A stretch of 64,000 nucleotides of DNA from an uncultured Nitrososphaerales archaeon (GCA_963706445.1 OY970160.1:544001-608000); one strand, 5' to 3'; counted from the stretch's first letter, positions 4,305-26,898 are shown. Notes: a model not told the origin generated them from the sequence alone. A program made the numbers and translations.

Positions 4305-4315
4305 GGCTCTTTAAC
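4305..4315 (-). promoter_or_regulatory. Viral late promoter-like motif GTTAAAGAGCC
   Basis: Motif G lies 30 nt before ATG at 4285. Confidence 0.6.
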
Positions 4316-4316
4316 A

Positions 4317-7300
4317 TCAAATCAATTCGACGGCCTGGATGTGGAACACCGTCGGGCCCCTCGCCTGCTTCTGGGTCTCGAAGACGAAATCCATCCCCAT
4401 CACTTGGAAGTATTCGTTCAGCCCGGTCTGGACGGTGATGACAGTGACCAGCTGGCCGAGCTTCGGGAGCCTCTCCGGGATGTAGCAGTAGCAATCCAGG
4501 ACCCGCTTGCCGCTGCCCGAGAGGCTGACCTGGGCCACGACCAGGTTCACCATCGTCTGCCTGTCTCTGACGTTCTGGTCCGTGACGACGTCCTCCGAGA
4601 GCAGGTATTGGCTCTGGCTGACGGCGTTGTCCGCCTCCGTGACGATGAGCGGGGCCGAGTAGGTCCTGAAGGCGTAAGTGATTGTCGACGCCGTAGGAGT
4701 CCATGCCTGTCCCGTCGGTCGACGTGGCCTTCCTTCCCGAGGTGCCCGAGTCGTGGTACCAGCCATAGGTGTTGCCGGAGTCTCCTATCATGGCCAGGGC
4801 TATCCAATACTTCTGACCGACGAGCACGGTCTGGCTCCCGATGTCTGCCTGGACCCAACCGCCCCCCGAGAGGACGGTCGACACCGGGACCGTGAACTGC
4901 TTGACCAGAGCCCCAGGGACGCCTCCGACGTCGACGAAGACGTAGCCCTGCAGGTCTCCGGTCGGCGTCCCGGTCTTGTTGACGTAGATTCCGATGTATT
5001 GAAGCGTCTCCTGGGTCGGCGCGAACTGGAAGGCAATCCAATTGGCGTTGATCTTGTCGGCTCCTCCCACGACCGACGTCGAACTCTGGTCGATGACGGT
5101 GCTGTCCGTGCCTCCCAGCCCGTAGAGGCGGTTGACCAGGTCGGCGGAGGTGTCCTCGAACGAGAAGACCGCATCGTCGACGGCGTAGAGGACCCTGCTC
5201 TGGTCGTTCCAGGCCGCTCCCGTGGCCGGGTCGTCTGTGATGAGCGCCAACGAGTCCACAATCTCCGGGAAGGCGAAGTGGAGAATCTTCTCCTCGTCGA
5301 CCCACCAAACGCAGCCGGCCTGGGCTGCCAGGTCGTTCAGGATGTCGCTGATGCGCTTGTAGGGCGCGACGTAGCTGGGGATCGATATACCCGTGCTCGC
5401 TATGGTCGAGTTGTAGCCAGTGCCTGCGTAGAGCTGGGCCACCTCTCCGAGCGCCTGCTGGCCGACGGCCACGTCTCCGTCAGACATGGCCCGGTTGATG
5501 ACCTTCACGTCGTCGATGGTCGCGTTGAGCTTGCCCGCTCCGCTCCCCTCTGCCCCTATCCCCAGGGCCGTGTTGTTAGCGACTGGGACGTCAGAGTAAC
5601 TCCCCTGGGCCACCAGAATCCCGTCGACGTAGAGGCTCAGGTTCACCATATCGTAGACCCCGACGACGTGGTGCCAGGCTCCGGTCGAATAGCCCGTGGT
5701 CGCGTCGACGTATCTGAAGGCTGACCCTGTCCCGAACGAGACCCGGAAGGCTCCGGCGTTGGTGACCTGCAGGGCGTAGTTCCGGTTGTTATCTGCCAGC
5801 CCTTTGATGACGATGCTCGTGACCGAGCCCGGGGTGGCGATGACATAGACCCAGGCGGCTATCGTGAACGGCCCGGGGATGTCCAGGGTCGCCGCGTCCT
5901 GGACGGTCAGGTAGTTCGTCGACCCGTCGAAGGTCAGGGCGTGGCCGAAGAGCGAGTTCTGGCCGGAGGCCCAGGTCGGGGAGCCCGTGGCCGTGGCGTT
6001 GTTCCCGTTCCCGCTGACGTCTCCCGGGGTGGTCCCGGAACCTTCGTCGAGCGGCAGGTAGAGCACGAGGTTCGCGCGTCCGGGCCCTACCGTGTGGTAT
6101 TCGATTCCCTCATACTGGAAGACGGTCTGCTGCTGGGTCGGGTAGGCAGACTTGTCCGTGAGCACGAGCTTGACCAGGTTGCCCAGCTCGGTCGTCTGGT
6201 CCGTGCTGTCCACCGTGACGCCGTCCGACTGCTTCTTCTGGAACCTCGAGAAGTTGCCGATGCGCCTGGTGAGCCTCTGGGTCCAGTCGAAGCCGGCCAC
6301 CTCGTAGACCAGCCTCCCCAGGGCTGGCACCGTCGTCTTGTTTCCTGTGACCCGGCCGCTGAAGAACTTCACATACTCGCCTGACCTGCCCGCCCAGATG
6401 TCGACAGGGGTGTCGAGCAGGATCTTCCCCAACAAGACCTGGCCGGAGTCCTCTATCTCCAAGTTGAACGTCGACGCCACTCCTTCGGCTCCTCCGTTCG
6501 TGGTGATGCTCAGGAGGTTGAAGTCTGTCCTCGGGGCGACCGTGATGGGCGGGCTCGTGGCCAGCGTGAGGACCTCCTGGGCGGTGAGGACCCGGTCGTA
6601 GGCTCTGGGGTCGTCCACGGTCGAGTTCTGGGCGTGGTTCACCCCGTCGCCGAAGATGACCTTGTAGCCGGCCGAGACTCTGACGGTGACGGCGAGGGCG
6701 TGCTGGTCGAGCTGGACCCCGTCCAGGTAGAGCGTGATGGTCGCGCCATCGTAGGTCATGGCGAGGTGGTGCCAGCCGTTCAGGGGGGCCGTGTTCGAGC
6801 CGGGGCTGTAAGTGTGCTGGGAGTTGCCCGAATCGCAGAGCCCGTACTGGATTGCAAGGTTGCCGAGGACCTGGATCCACCAGTCGTAGTTCGCGGAGTT
6901 GCTCGTGCCTCCCGTGGCCTTTCTGACGATTACCTCGAGCAGCTGGGACGGAGCCTGCGCGAGGTAGGCCCAGGCGCAGATGCTGAACCCGCCGGTGAAC
7001 TGCAGGGCCGCGTTGTCGGCGACCTCGACCCAGTTGGCTGTGCCGAACTGGAGGGCGTCGCCGAACTTTCCAGGGACCCATGCCGGGGAGCTGATGAGGC
7101 TGCCCGTGTTCCCGTTGCCGCTCTTGTCTGTGGCCGTCGACCCGGTCCCGTCGTCCAGGGGCCAGTAGCCGACCAGGCCCAGGGGGACCGTCGGAGCCGC
7201 CGAGCCGTAGGGGTCTGCGACGTAGGTGAACCCCGGGGTCTTCAGCTGGACCTTCGCCAGCATGGGGCCCGTCTTGAACGGCCCAGTAGGCGGAGGCGGA

Positions 7301-11169: not shown

Positions 11170-11420
11170 CAGGCGTTAACCTCCGCGACTGTCGTGAAGA
11201 TGACCTCTCTGTTCCAGGTCCCGCAGGCGGGACAATGCCAGTTTTTGACGACGCCTCCGTTGTCCGTGGGCTCGGTAAATTCTACGACTGGGGTGCCTGC
11301 ACAGGAATCGCTCAGATGCTCGAAAGTGAACTTGCCGCCCTCCTCAGGCTGTTTCTTACCCGTGGTCTCCTCGACCTGGAGGAGCTGTCGGGCTGGCCGG
11401 CTTATTAGCCTACGATTCAA
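11169..11420 (-). CDS. Small Zn-ribbon protein
   Basis: WHCPACGTW; stop/start overlap with the tube gene. Confidence 0.5.
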   Translation of the reverse strand: MNRRLISRPARQLLQVEETTGKKQPEEGGKFTFEHLSDSCAGTPVVEFTEPTDNGGVVKNWHCPACGTWNREVIFTTVAEVNA

Positions 11421-12080: not shown

Positions 12081-12091
12081 CCGTCTTTAAC
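12081..12091 (-). promoter_or_regulatory. Viral late promoter-like motif GTTAAAGACGG
   Basis: 35 nt before ATG at 12056. Confidence 0.55.
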
Positions 12092-12096
12092 GGGAC

Positions 12097-12390
12097 TCAG
12101 GCCTTGACCTTCTCGTAGTAGGCCGTCACGGTGCCTACCGAGTGGACCCACTCCGGCTTGTAGTCGGCCGCTTCGCCTGGAGGCTCCGGGGCTTCCCTGA
12201 ACCCGCTGAAGTCCCACCAGCTGATGCCCGCCGCCGGGTTCGCCTTGAGCAGGAGGACCTGCTGGGCCACTTCGAGCTCCATCTTCCATTTCTTGTCCTT
12301 GTTGGCGTTCCCCTTCGCCCAGACGTGGACGGAATGGTTGTCCAGGTATTCCCACCTGGCCGCCCCCATGCTCGTAGGCCTGAGGACGGG
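12097..12390 (-). pseudogene. 3' remnant of a probable tail terminator/completion gene
   Basis: Gene-like frame PVLRPTSMGAARWEYLDNHSVHVWAK...GTVTAYYEKVKA joined out of frame to the capsid gene. Confidence 0.55.
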
Positions 12391-13225
12391 TGAGGTCGGG
12401 GTCGAAGATGGTCTTGACTTGTGGGTATCCGATGGCTCCGAGGTCCGCCGTCCCTGCGTCGAGGGCAGCGGCCGGGTTGTGGTATCTGACGAAGGTGTTG
12501 CTGCGGAAGTTCTTCCAGACGGTGGGGTGCATGGCGACCGTGTCGACCTGGAACCCAGACTGCGCGATGGCGTCATACTGGGCGTCGATGTCGGTCAGCG
12601 GGTTGTAGAGGCTGAAGTCGTTGTTCGAGTTCATGGTGGCGTAGCTGCCGACGCCTGCTCCTGCGCCTGCGTCCGACTCTGCGATCGTGGCCAGCTGGCT
12701 GTTCTCCAGCTTGACGAGGGCCATGGCGGCGTTGCTGACGTGGAGGGCGAAGACGTCGTGGACTGCCTGCTTCTCGGACTCGTCCGAGAGCAGTATGTGG
12801 GCGACGTTCTTGCCGATGGCTGCCAGGTCGAAGGTCGTCCTGGCGTAGGTCTGCTTGACGACCTGGGCCTCCTCCAGCGGGAGGATGCGGCCGGTCGCCG
12901 AGAACTTGGTGCCGAGGTCCACACTGAGGACCAGCTGCGGCGAGTTGATGATCTGGAAGCACTCCCTCAGGCGGTATTGTCTGAAGGTCAGACCGAGGAC
13001 CTGGTCGAGCACGACTATCGCCTTGATGGTCGAGCTGTCCGGGGTGTCGAAAATGCCTGCGCGGAGCTCCTGTTCTGCGGCTCTCAGGAACCTGGGCTCT
13101 ACTTCGGTGGGCCTGCCTTTCGCTCCGAACTTGGCGACGTATTCGCTGGTCTCGGGGTGGCCGACCGCTCCTCTGTAGAAGACCTGGTCGTCAGGGTTGA
13201 ACCAGGCGAGGTGTGTTCCGTCCAT
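12389..13225 (-). pseudogene. Major capsid protein (HK97-like), truncated after ~279 aa
   Basis: Follows scaffold and cement genes; LSDES...HVSNAAMAL...FQVDTVAMHPTVW...GYPQVKTIFDPDLT, then atypical read-through to 12038. Confidence 0.8.
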
Positions 13226-13228
13226 GTC

Positions 13229-13669
13229 CTATGCACTTATCCCCGCTCGGTAGCCGAGCAGAATCCTTCCGGTGCCGTTCTTCGTGATGGCTTCGTAGGC
13301 CATGCCCACGATGAGCCTGAGCTCCTTGGTCTGTGACTGGACGTAGTTGCTGCTGAAGTCGGTCGCCTCCGCCAGCTGGACCTTTGTCTTGGCCGTGGTG
13401 CCGGGCTTCACGAAGTTCCCGAGCGGGACGGCTGCGACGTTGTCCTCTGCAACCTCGACGATGCCTTCGAGGAGGCACCTGCCGGTCCCTGCTTTGGTGA
13501 TGGCTTCGACCGCGACCACATAGGGGCCTGCGTCTGTAGTGTTCTGGGCGTCGTGGACCTTCCCTGCGCGTAGGACGCACAGGTCGCCTTTGACGATGGC
13601 CGATGTGTTGTCCTCGGTGAGCTGGATGAACCGCGCTCCAATCTCACTGTCTACGTCTCCTACCGCCAT
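13229..13669 (-). CDS. Capsid cement/decoration protein (DUF2190-like)
   Basis: AIVKGDLC...VAVEA...G.CLLEGIVEV...IVGMAYEA; between scaffold and capsid genes. Confidence 0.7.
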   Translation of the reverse strand: MAVGDVDSEIGARFIQLTEDNTSAIVKGDLCVLRAGKVHDAQNTTDAGPYVVAVEAITKAGTGRCLLEGIVEVAEDNVAAVPLGNFVKPGTTAKTKVQLAEATDFSSNYVQSQTKELRLIVGMAYEAITKNGTGRILLGYRAGISA

Positions 13670-15054
13670 TAGGCGCCGCCTCCTCTGTTTGCTCCAAACA
13701 AGCTCGAGTACAGTTCGTCGACGATGCTGTCAGGCGCCATGCTGTCTGCGGCGGCCGCCTGGAAAGTGACCGTGGATGCTCCCCTCGTCTTGAGGGTCCC
13801 TGCGAGTATCTTCTGATAGGTCTCGCCGATGACGTTGAGCGCATCCGCGCTGAGCGTCTTGATGGCTTCGACCTCTTTGGCGAAGTCTGCCTGCCTGGCC
13901 AGACCCGCCTGAACCTTGAGCTCTACCACCCTGTTGATGACCTTGTCGTGCTCTGCGGCGATCCTCTGGGCCTTCTCCATCTCAAGGACGTCGAGCTTGG
14001 TCTTCAAGCCTTCGATGGTGGCATTGAACGCAGCACACTTGGCGTCCATGTCTGCCTTCATGTCCGCGATCTTCTTCTCCGCTTCTGCGGGCTCCATTCG
14101 AGGTTGGTTCGCCGTCGGAGGCTCTTTAACGTGGTCCGCTTCCGAGAATTTCGACCAGGCGTAGGCGTAGAGCTTGTCGCTCTGGATCTTGTCTCCGATG
14201 AGCTGGGCGGCTTCTCCGACCGTCTTGGCCAGGCCTGCCTGGATGGCAGCCCCGACGCTCCTGTTCTTGATGGCCGCGCAGACCTTCTGGGCCGTGTCCT
14301 TGTCGCCGTACTTGTCCATCATCTTGGACAGGCACTGCTCCCAGGGGAACGAGCCAGGGCCTGACGCGGGCGCGGCGTAGTAGTCCTTGAGCAGCTCGTC
14401 CATCGACGCGACGAAGTCCAACGTCTGGGGCTTCTGCTCTCGTGCTTCTTTAACGGCCAGCTCGAGGGCGGCCGAGAAGTTGCAGGTCCTGACGTCGGGG
14501 CTGACGCAGGTCCCCTTGACCCGGGCCTGGCTTCCGAAGGCCGGCCTGGCGACGAAGGCGAGGTGCCTGCCGAGGAACGACTTGACCAGCTCCAGCCCTC
14601 CGCTCTGAGTGACGTTGTTCGTGTCTACCCGGATCTGGGGGCTGACCCACATCCATGCGCCGCTCTTGATCCCCTCCCAGGCTGCGTCGTCTGTTATCTC
14701 CACGATGCCGAAGGCGTCCTGGGCCTGGCCGACCTCGATTATCGTCCCGACCTTGTGGCTCTGCTCGTAGGCTGCGAGCTCTGCCGGGCTGAAGCTCTGA
14801 AGATCTCCTGCAGCGTCCTTGTAGGTCCCGTGCTCGTTGGGATCTCCGGGTGGACCGAGGACAGGCCTGCCGATGAACGACCTGAGCCCGTCCATGATGG
14901 CGTCCGTCGTCACGCCCCACTTGTTGAGGCTCATGCTGTCGTCGATGAGGAAGACCTTGACGTAGTGCTTGCCAGACTTCTCGTAGGGCTCGAAGCTACG
15001 GCTGAGATAGTTCAGAACCTGAGGCGTCTGGACTTGGGTAAGAGATTGTGACAC
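13669..15054 (-). CDS. Prohead protease-scaffold fusion
   Basis: N-terminal NKWGV...FIGRPVL...VSPQI...HLAFVARPAFG; C-terminal coiled coil. Confidence 0.8.
   Translation of the reverse strand: MSQSLTQVQTPQVLNYLSRSFEPYEKSGKHYVKVFLIDDSMSLNKWGVTTDAIMDGLRSFIGRPVLGPPGDPNEHGTYKDAAGDLQSFSPAELAAYEQSHKVGTIIEVGQAQDAFGIVEITDDAAWEGIKSGAWMWVSPQIRVDTNNVTQSGGLELVKSFLGRHLAFVARPAFGSQARVKGTCVSPDVRTCNFSAALELAVKEAREQKPQTLDFVASMDELLKDYYAAPASGPGSFPWEQCLSKMMDKYGDKDTAQKVCAAIKNRSVGAAIQAGLAKTVGEAAQLIGDKIQSDKLYAYAWSKFSEADHVKEPPTANQPRMEPAEAEKKIADMKADMDAKCAAFNATIEGLKTKLDVLEMEKAQRIAAEHDKVINRVVELKVQAGLARQADFAKEVEAIKTLSADALNVIGETYQKILAGTLKTRGASTVTFQAAAADSMAPDSIVDELYSSLFGANRGGGA
14120..14130 (-). promoter_or_regulatory. Intragenic promoter-like motif GTTAAAGAGCC
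   Basis: 33 nt before in-frame ATG at 14097. Confidence 0.6.
14444..14454 (-). promoter_or_regulatory. Intragenic promoter-like motif GTTAAAGAAGC
   Basis: 33 nt before in-frame TTG at 14421. Confidence 0.5.
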
Positions 15055-15616
15055 GGCTGGCGTCTTCCTGGGCCACCACCGCTTTTAACGCGGCTTCCTT
15101 GACCACAGGCAAGCCGGCCGCCACCTCCTCGGCGAGCTCCTCGAGGAGCGGCTCCATCTCAGAGAGGTTGTCCCCCAGGTGCAGGCCGGGGCAGACCTGC
15201 TGGGCGTCTTCCAGGTAGCCCACGTTGCCGTCGGCGTCATAGTGGAACGGGTAAAGCCTGCAGGGGTGCGGCCTGGCTCCGTACACCGCGCACCTCTGGT
15301 CGTCCTTGAGGAACGGGCAAGCCTCGAAGGGCTTGACGTTGAGCTGGCTCAGGCCGAAGTCTCCCTCATGGGTGCAGTCCTTCACAAAGTCGAGGTTCGC
15401 CGGGGCCCTGGCGGCCAGGGCTTTGACGTCTCGAGGCAGGAGCGACAGGGCCCTGGGGTGGCAGCACTTCCCGCAGTCTGGCAGGCACTCGAACAGGATG
15501 AGCTTGCCTTCCTGGGTAACCGGGACCTGGACCTTGACGCCGTTCTTGGCCTGATACTGGGCGAAGGCGACGATGCGGGCGTTGGCCACCTTCGGGTCCA
15601 CGGCTGGGGGAGTCAT
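14996..15616 (-). CDS. YkgJ/FliB-family CxxCxxCC cysteine-cluster protein
   Basis: FECLPDCGKCC...CPFL...RCAVYGARPHPCRLYPF...CPG. Confidence 0.9.
   Translation of the reverse strand: MTPPAVDPKVANARIVAFAQYQAKNGVKVQVPVTQEGKLILFECLPDCGKCCHPRALSLLPRDVKALAARAPANLDFVKDCTHEGDFGLSQLNVKPFEACPFLKDDQRCAVYGARPHPCRLYPFHYDADGNVGYLEDAQQVCPGLHLGDNLSEMEPLLEELAEEVAAGLPVVKEAALKAVVAQEDASRVTISYPSPDASGSELSQP
15079..15089 (-). promoter_or_regulatory. Viral late promoter-like motif GTTAAAAGCGG
   Basis: 35 nt before GTG at 15054. Confidence 0.55.
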
Positions 15617-17408: not shown

Positions 17409-17419
17409 GGCTCTATAAC
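17409..17419 (-). promoter_or_regulatory. Viral late promoter-like motif GTTATAGAGCC
   Basis: 34 nt before ATG at 17385. Confidence 0.6.
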
Positions 17420-18872: not shown

Positions 18873-18883
18873 GGCTCTTTAAC
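18873..18883 (-). promoter_or_regulatory. Viral late promoter-like motif GTTAAAGAGCC
   Basis: 33 nt before ATG at 18850. Confidence 0.6.
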
Positions 18884-26489: not shown

Positions 26490-26898
26490 GGCGCTTAATC
26501 CAGTTACAGTTCGCACAGAGAATCTGAAGGTCCTTTTGCGCTTCTTCAGGATGCTTCAGATAGTAGGCGACCATGACACCTCCAGAACCCTTGAACTTCT
26601 CTTTGATCTGCTTCTGTCCTCCTCCATTGATATGATCAAATTGGAGGGCGCGGCCATCGGTGTACGGAAGAATATGCTGACCAAATGGATTGGTGCAACA
26701 GCCGCCGAGGAGAGTTAGAAGATTCTGCCGATTTCTCTCGAAGTGCCTGCGGGTGACGCTGCGTCTTGTGGACCTACCCTTCGGGGTAGCCAGCCACTTC
26801 TCGTATCTTTCCTTTGTTGTTTGTTGTTTTGTTTGTTTGTTTAACAGAGTAGGTAGGTAGGTAGGTAGGGTAGGTGGACCGGAAACACTGGGGATCAT
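26455..26898 (-). CDS. HNH endonuclease-like protein
   Basis: LGGCC...LQFDHINGGG...LQILCANCNWIKR; ATG in ATGA overlap. Confidence 0.75.
   Translation of the reverse strand: MIPSVSGPPTLPTYLPTLLNKQTKQQTTKERYEKWLATPKGRSTRRSVTRRHFERNRQNLLTLLGGCCTNPFGQHILPYTDGRALQFDHINGGGQKQIKEKFKGSGGVMVAYYLKHPEEAQKDLQILCANCNWIKRHEKRETRPRLG
26813..26874 (+). repeat. Simple sequence repeats: GTT/GTTT tract and (GTAG)5
   Basis: tttgttgtttgttgttttgtttgtttgttt at 26813-26842; gtag x5 at 26849-26868. Confidence 0.9.

Follow-up and report, generated by a model that had tools for sequence, protein, structure and literature searches.

Does one viral gene encode a prohead protease, a free scaffold and a protein intermediate between them, each under a promoter of its own? 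The question is raised by a 64,000-nucleotide (nt) stretch of DNA from an uncultured Nitrososphaerales archaeon (GCA_963706445.1 OY970160.1:544001-608000), the whole of which is called the window here. The archaeal genome from which it comes, that of a soil organism, is a single contig of 1.82 Mb with 58% GC, and its 16S gene carries a primer-site variant known from Nitrososphaeria. Approximately the first 31 kb of the window are occupied by a head-tailed provirus whose genes lie on the minus strand. One of these genes encodes a 461-amino acid (aa) protein combining protease, helical module and scaffold. A preliminary description of this DNA proposed that the gene is nested on three levels under transcriptional control. 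Our analysis indicates that two of these levels, or tiers, occur throughout the family, and that the full set of three is confined to the clade of the window, which comprises four lineages.

The word GTTAAA(G/A) is found 35, 33 and 33 nt (counted from its first G) before the in-frame codons GTG 15054, TTG 14421 and ATG 14097, here termed tiers 1, 2 and 3; the coordinates given in the preliminary description were recomputed and are correct. The predicted products are 461, 250 and 142 aa long. GTTAAA occurs seven times in the window, always on the coding strand, and each of the six in the structural region has a start codon 29-34 nt after its first T (Table 1). The spacing at the internal sites matches that at ordinary gene starts, which is +29 to +34 in the window and +31 to +33 in its relatives. 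A search for Shine-Dalgarno sequences before codons 212 and 320 gave no match of at least 4 nt to GGAGGTGA, and RNA folding at the three sites was unremarkable, with no stable structure (z 0.12, 2.05 and -0.02). No purine-rich B recognition element (BRE) is evident just upstream of the seven viral sites; host sites have a weak A bias there. A frameshift signal was also considered and was rejected by inspection, the motif lacking the X XXY YYZ form. A GTTAAAC at 26800-26860 (minus strand) is unlike the structural-gene boxes, being preceded by TACC repeats, followed by tandem AAAC repeats and without a start codon at +30.

Both internal starts lie at domain borders, as had been suggested, because the AlphaFold model of the 461-aa protein (84-row alignment; mean predicted local distance difference test score, pLDDT, of 83) places a beta-rich protease domain at about residues 23-205, a small helical module at about 236-310 and, after a linker, a 60-residue helix from 322 (322-382). 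The Cys motif ascribed earlier to the middle domain is present at aa 236-263. The best Foldseek matches are herpes assemblins and T4 gp21 (probability 0.97-1.0, E-values 2e-3 to 2e-2, which are weak because the whole 461-aa model was the query), and in the model the domain has the assemblin/HK97-T4 prohead protease fold. The candidate catalytic residues Ser138 and His164 are the same in all 75 rows counted, and His75 is conserved among close homologs. Pfam and PHROGs gave no name for the protein and tblastn against cultured phages gave no match. A first metagenome scan for homologous loci yielded none, and a second only near-duplicates and one distant locus.

Selection on the tier-2 site can be followed in three relatives (L001, L002 and L004), whose proteins are 51-54% identical to that of the window. 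Duplicated loci (L003; L005, L006, L013 and L041; L008, L014 and L042) were not counted as independent. In all three relatives GTT AAA GAG is retained, with TTG in frame at a distance of exactly 32 nt. In these genomes GTT makes up 2-5% of Val codons, AAA 9-13% of Lys codons and TTG 4-6% of Leu codons, while identity at four-fold sites between the window and the relatives is 0.45-0.48 over eight late genes, which is near saturation. Across the same genes and lineages Val201 is the only all-GTT column among 91 conserved Val columns, Lys202 one of two all-AAA columns among 69, and Leu212 the only all-TTG column among 111 Leu columns. Val/Leu-Lys pairs are coded GTT AAA only at motif sites, that is, in two of 33 cases in the window and one of about 25 in each relative. 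The check put forward in the preliminary description, conservation at synonymous sites, thus came out in its favour. Moreover, translation of the full-length gene in the three relatives can only begin at a TTG that follows the same box by 31 nt, and TTG is therefore used behind this box.

The tier-2 site occupies the position, just after the protease, of the single internal box in L038 and L039, both of which are without the module. Because these loci carry their sole box at that position, tier 2 can be read as an ancestral promoter of the scaffold that was retained and acquired its TTG start once the module had been inserted. In a tree of the protease domain the clade of the window is supported (98/95); its deeper forks are open, and it leaves the order of module and promoter gain undecided.

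At the tier-3 site the three close relatives have an AT-rich variant, CTAATAAGAG, 31 nt before the aligned ATG at the start of the coil. In five more distant homologs (30-40% identity) the word TTAAAGA itself precedes the coil, again in the same frame, and is followed by ATG or TTG at +38 (L007, ATG), +41 (L037, TTG), +32 (L038, ATG), +38 (L039, ATG) and +41 (L040, ATG). The Met at the coil start is thus aligned in the close relatives and is either Met or TTG in the distant ones. The first codon overlapping the word encodes Val in some and Leu in others; it is therefore the nucleotide word that is kept and not the residue. TTAAAGA would occur at this place by chance with a probability of 0.003-0.009 per locus, and these values were not multiplied since the five loci share ancestry. 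In L007 copies on the coding strand outnumber those on the other strand 12:1, and the portal is among the genes that the word precedes; in L039 the copy before the coil is the only one in the locus. Two loci without the motif before their other genes (L046 and L047) also have none internally. Proviral homologs L026-L033, from genomes of the same taxonomic order, were left out of the motif test because TATA-like words are too many in their AT-rich genomes. The protease ORF therefore contains a promoter-like element at promoter spacing and under selection at the nucleotide level, together with an in-frame internal start, conserved in homologs, at the border of the C-terminal coiled-coil scaffold. 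To judge from these comparisons, the motif set is a real and selected feature.

The motif reported before the full-length gene is present, although as a variant (TTAAAA) lying in the CxxCxxCC ORF, away from the position used by the relatives. It holds the only TTA-AAA codon pair in the eight late genes, in which TTA represents 0.5% of Leu codons. An ATT behind GGTGA seems to serve as the start of the protease gene in L007 (9680-9724) and L039 (284-310), approximately 90 and 17 codons before the called start, respectively; such a start would lower protease output.

Host genes supply a standard against which the boxes can be judged. Host starts were called crudely by ourselves (about 1,500 ORFs), and TTAAA- and TTATA-type hexamers are enriched 24-40-fold in the interval 20-42 nt upstream of them. 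Leaderless mRNA is the majority class in some archaea (PMC4983044). Host starts lie most often at +29 to +32 from TTAAA-type boxes, in keeping with mRNA that has no leader or almost none. Outside the provirus a candidate start is found at +28 to +37 behind 18% of GTTAAA copies compared with 1.7% of random positions. TTG codons number 106 at +28 to +37 behind host boxes versus about 25 in later intervals of the same kind, and they are biased by frame (85 in frame, 14 and 3 out of frame), whereas CTG has no such bias. GTG is the rarest start codon behind host boxes. It seems that TTG starts behind host TATA boxes are nearly as common as ATG starts (85 versus 106 in frame). Leaderless starts in Haloferax are mostly AUG, and such high use of TTG is unusual beside them. 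The interiors of host genes contain [GC]TTAAAGA three times in 937 kb, in no case before an in-frame start, as against two copies in the 1.4-kb protease-scaffold gene. The viral arrangement, an AT-rich box approximately 29-34 nt before a start codon, is that of the host genes. We infer that the boxes act as promoters and that the short proteins are made.

We propose that three TATA boxes of the structural-gene type start three transcripts with a shared 3' part, presumably late in infection, each beginning within a few bases of its in-frame start codon and undergoing leaderless translation. Tier 1, with its variant box and GTG (TTG in the relatives), would provide a little of the full-length protease-module-scaffold protein, bringing protease into the procapsid; the rare GTG start would suit a protease needed in few copies. 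Tier 2 would yield from its TTG a module-plus-scaffold protein without protease, and tier 3 from its ATG an abundant free coiled-coil scaffold. No TATA-like word is found on the coding strand between 14129 and 12090. Having no such box of their own, the cement and capsid genes would depend on the promoters of the protease-scaffold gene and be read from tiers 1-3. All three transcripts would continue into cement and capsid, so that the dose of RNA would rise stepwise towards the proteins most needed. A tier-3 promoter and its scaffold are very likely; a promoter at tier 2 is almost as likely, and translation of the tier-2 protein is probable. The three-protein model with nested leaderless transcripts in the manner of herpes UL26.5 is, taken as a whole, also probable.

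Several observations weigh against this model. Tier 2 is confined to the four related lineages and is absent from L007 although the latter has the module. In the three closest relatives the tier-3 box consists of another AT-rich word, the coil start of L037 is a TTG picked after the fact, and spacing in four of the distant homologs is 38-41 nt, so that the RNAs concerned would have short leaders. Outside the provirus GTTAAAGA precedes a host start in only one of 12 cases, and the base following TTAAA at host boxes is T in 63% and G in 9%, while the viral form has G-A there. Since the host prefers T and rarely uses GTTAAAGA, the viral box may need a viral activator, and such an activator is plausible. 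A candidate is an HTH gene of the relatives, located between the terminase and portal genes. A copy of GGCTAATAAG before the tail-tube region has no ATG, GTG or TTG at +30, implying either a leadered RNA or a non-standard start. Finally, the provirus in the window is probably defective, because a deletion has removed the C-terminus of the capsid protein and the neck genes, and present selection on this copy is doubtful. The three close relatives are intact in the region concerned; the argument from conservation therefore does not rest on the copy in the window.

The GGCTAATAAG word itself lies at 11400-11410 (minus strand) in the window and at 13790, 9107 and 16484 in L001, L002 and L004, respectively, in each case before a short Cys-rich ORF that precedes the gene for the tail tube; in the relatives the word has 16 nt in common with the tier-3 site.

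We might instead suppose that only two proteins are made, in which case tier 3 would produce the scaffold while the tier-2 box, a real promoter, would merely add RNA for scaffold, cement and capsid, or would be a retained ancestral scaffold promoter, with TTG 14421 giving little or no stable protein. This is unlikely, though it has more in its favour than the other alternatives. The position shared with the only internal box of the module-free loci could be a leftover from module insertion, L007 does without tier 2, and the residues past Leu212 are poorly conserved. Against this, the TTG is fixed in frame at +32 in four of four lineages, as the single case among 111 Leu columns, and a leadered tier-2 RNA would leave ATG 14097 without a Shine-Dalgarno sequence. 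The module also forms the N-terminus of stand-alone genes (P0039 and P0049), and homologs associated with Bathyarchaeia have Shine-Dalgarno-like motifs before both a middle module and the coil.

These last homologs (L015-L022) do not carry the motif internally. Shine-Dalgarno-like motifs precede the gene start, as well as a different middle module in five of five (L015, L017, L018, L020 and L022) and the coil in three of the five, so that a three-tier layout at the level of translation is possible; it is regarded only as a lead because the homologs examined are close kin. A broader proposal makes the tier-2 product a head-assembly protein distinct from the other two, with a two-Cys helical module tethered to the scaffold, and regards the three-tier layout as itself selected, built with TATA boxes encoded in codons when the host has leaderless mRNAs and with Shine-Dalgarno sequences in the Bathyarchaeia-associated viruses. 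We put this forward tentatively, as somewhat less probable than its converse. It suggests that the type of signal, TATA box or Shine-Dalgarno sequence, follows the host's way of starting translation.

A second alternative is that the motif works in RNA, as a translation enhancer or protein-binding site, with internal initiation on one long mRNA in the manner of lambda Nu3 and gp17.5 of Haloferax tailed virus 1 (HFTV1). Internal translation does produce the HFTV1 scaffold, and RNA is less abundant across the 3' portion of the gene concerned (10.64898/2026.09.13.751334); conservation by itself does not separate a DNA from an RNA element, and distant homologs differ in spacing (32 to 41 nt). However, the word has the core and spacing of host TATA boxes and also stands before the first genes of apparent units, a distance of 30 nt is too long for a ribosome-binding site, and nothing comparable is present upstream of HFTV1 gp17.5 (rank 183 of 516 ATGs), all of which make this explanation quite improbable. 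Strongly disfavoured is a single fused protein cut by its own protease, for although self-processing protease-scaffold fusions such as P2 gpO are known and Val/Leu-Lys-Glu is a common helical sequence, so that the motifs might reflect amino-acid constraint or chance, the constraint sits on synonymous positions and the residue changes while TTAAAGA stays. The full-length form of the three-promoter model is probably self-processed as well, which does not explain the motifs.

Nested protease/scaffold genes are already established, and the present case is a variant of a known strategy anticipated by the herpesviruses. As in UL26/UL26.5 of herpes simplex virus 1 (HSV-1), UL80/UL80.5 of human cytomegalovirus (HCMV) and ostreid herpesvirus 1 (OsHV-1), a protease of assemblin fold is fused to a C-terminal scaffold (PMC11565193, PMC9732275). 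In herpesviruses a separate shorter in-frame transcript makes the excess scaffold, and here such a transcript is predicted from sequence. The internal scaffold transcript is about ten times more abundant in OsHV-1 (PMC11565193), and for cytomegalovirus the title of Welch 1991, as given in PMC9732275, refers to four 3'-coterminal transcripts and four in-frame proteins. Unlike the herpesvirus systems, ours is that of an archaeal head-tailed provirus with presumably leaderless mRNAs, TTG and GTG starts, and polycistronic reading into cement and capsid; it also has a middle tier with a mobile Cys module, which has no known herpes counterpart. With its portal, tail tube, tape measure and HK97 gp10-like genes, and its location in an archaeal chromosome, the provirus is not a member of the Herpesvirales, even though its system would work like UL26.5. 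If the model is true, the herpes-type internal promoter extends to archaeal Caudoviricetes, and the transcriptional strategy of UL26.5 has a prokaryotic counterpart, either ancestral or convergent.

HFTV1 is likewise an archaeal head-tailed virus in which an in-frame start codon within the prohead protease gene gives rise to the scaffold, with the same order of protease-scaffold, stabilisation protein and capsid. Its gp17/gp17.5 pair differs in having two tiers and translational control: RNA is lower over the 3' part, control is reported as post-transcriptional, and the mechanism is called unknown (10.64898/2026.09.13.751334). A promoter before gp17.5 was tried and rejected, a weight matrix made from HFTV1 gene starts ranking the internal ATG 183 of 516. 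Comparison of the HFTV1 and window proteins with hhalign gave no significant relation (E 0.07). By eye, the N-terminus of gp17 (L044 7106-7200) is a small two-Cys hairpin ending in CAAIK, similar to the first half of the module.

In lambda C/Nu3, too, the scaffold is the in-frame C-terminal part of the protease gene, C being a ClpP-like protease, and the same holds for I/Z of phage Mu. In contrast to the window gene, which is without a Shine-Dalgarno sequence, lambda uses Shine-Dalgarno-led internal translation on one mRNA, and it is lambda that the Bathyarchaeia-associated homologs seem to resemble. P2 gpO also combines protease and scaffold in one ORF but yields a single, self-cleaved translation product and is without internal expression signals. 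For archaeal viruses, the accessible literature yielded no report of a nested scaffold driven by a promoter, most subscription papers being outside the search. How the protease-to-scaffold ratio is set is stated to be unresolved for HFTV1, the one archaeal case studied, and this virus family offers a precise mechanism: promoters written in codons together with a gradient of start codons (GTG/TTG, TTG, ATG). According to this mechanism, each genome in this group of viruses should encode one or two further proteins that are not annotated.

Table 1. Features of the protease-scaffold gene and its surroundings, in window coordinates
Feature	Position	Strand	Remarks
Tier-1 TATA-like box, variant GTTAAAAG (TTAAAA)	15082..15089	-	Within 3' end of CxxCxxCC ORF; first T 34 nt before GTG 15054
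Decayed remnant of tier-1 box	15025..15034	-	From DNA alignment; relatives there have GTTAAAGAC, 31 nt before TTG start
Tier-2 internal TATA-like box GTTAAAGA	14447..14454	-	Encoded by Val201-Lys202-Glu203 (GTT AAA GAA); starts at 14454, 33 nt before TTG 14421
Predicted tier-2 product	13669..14421	-	TTG start, codon 212; putative helical module plus scaffold, 250 aa
Tier-3 internal TATA-like box GTTAAAGA	14122..14130	-	Encoded by Val309-Lys310-Glu311 (GTT AAA GAG); starts at 14130, 33 nt before ATG 14097
Predicted tier-3 product	13669..14097	-	ATG start, codon 320; putative coiled-coil scaffold, 142 aa
Same box as at structural genes	18876..18883	-	Before ATG 18850 (+32)
Variant box GTTATAGA	17412..17419	-	Before ATG 17385 (+33)
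Same box as at structural genes	12084..12091	-	Before ATG 12056 (+34)
Same box as at structural genes	4308..4315	-	Before ATG 4285 (+29)
Prohead protease/helical module/scaffold ORF	13669..15054	-	461 aa, GTG start; from gene order and model
Protease domain, aa ~23-205	14440..14988	-	Assemblin/T4 gp21 fold; domain pLDDT above 90
Mobile ~70-aa helical module, aa 236-305	14140..14349	-	Two conserved Cys; also stand-alone and fused to other head proteins
CxxCxxCC (PF03692) gene	14996-15616	-	Between portal and protease; overlaps protease start by 59 nt in the window
Cement/decoration-like gene	13229..13669	-	Start overlaps protease-scaffold stop; weak head-decoration match; without own TATA-like box
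Major capsid gene	12377..13225	-	Truncated by deletion to aa 1-283 of 339; without own TATA-like box
Deletion junction	12377-12402	-	Capsid aa 1-283 of 339, then aa 70-169 of 170-aa tail terminator

The middle module is mobile, occurring in proteins with other types of protease as well as in the stand-alone genes mentioned above. It has no Pfam, PHROG or PDB assignment (the best PDB fold match, Z 5.2, is not meaningful), and an atlas feature search gave no usable match. A comparison with DUF3721 and ChaB-like proteins showed a weak likeness in shape to viral clusters bearing DUF3721 (template modelling score 0.32 by query). A stand-alone copy in L011 (4078-4515) lies between portal and protease and has its own internal GTT AAA GAG at 4339; another, in L009 (4098-4604), is in a non-structural region with genes for ribonucleotide reductase, Clp protease, AAA and VWA proteins. 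These occurrences point to a widespread module of head proteins.

The genes of the provirus are ordered terminase-like, portal (PF04860), accessory genes, CxxCxxCC gene, 461-aa gene, cement-like, capsid, tail tube and tape measure, and the order portal ... protease-scaffold gene, cement, capsid is common to all homologous loci. The capsid start is 3 nt past the cement stop in the window. As a result of the deletion the capsid gene runs into the 3' part of the tail terminator gene, and four L004 genes lying between capsid and tail terminator (237, 306, 133 and 49 aa) were not found at the window locus. In one of three DNA runs compared, a soil DNA run, parts of the region are covered at at least 99% with no other letters listed; such data are silent on expression. 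A CxxCxxCC (PF03692) gene is found between portal and protease also in L001, L002, L004, L037, L038 and L040.

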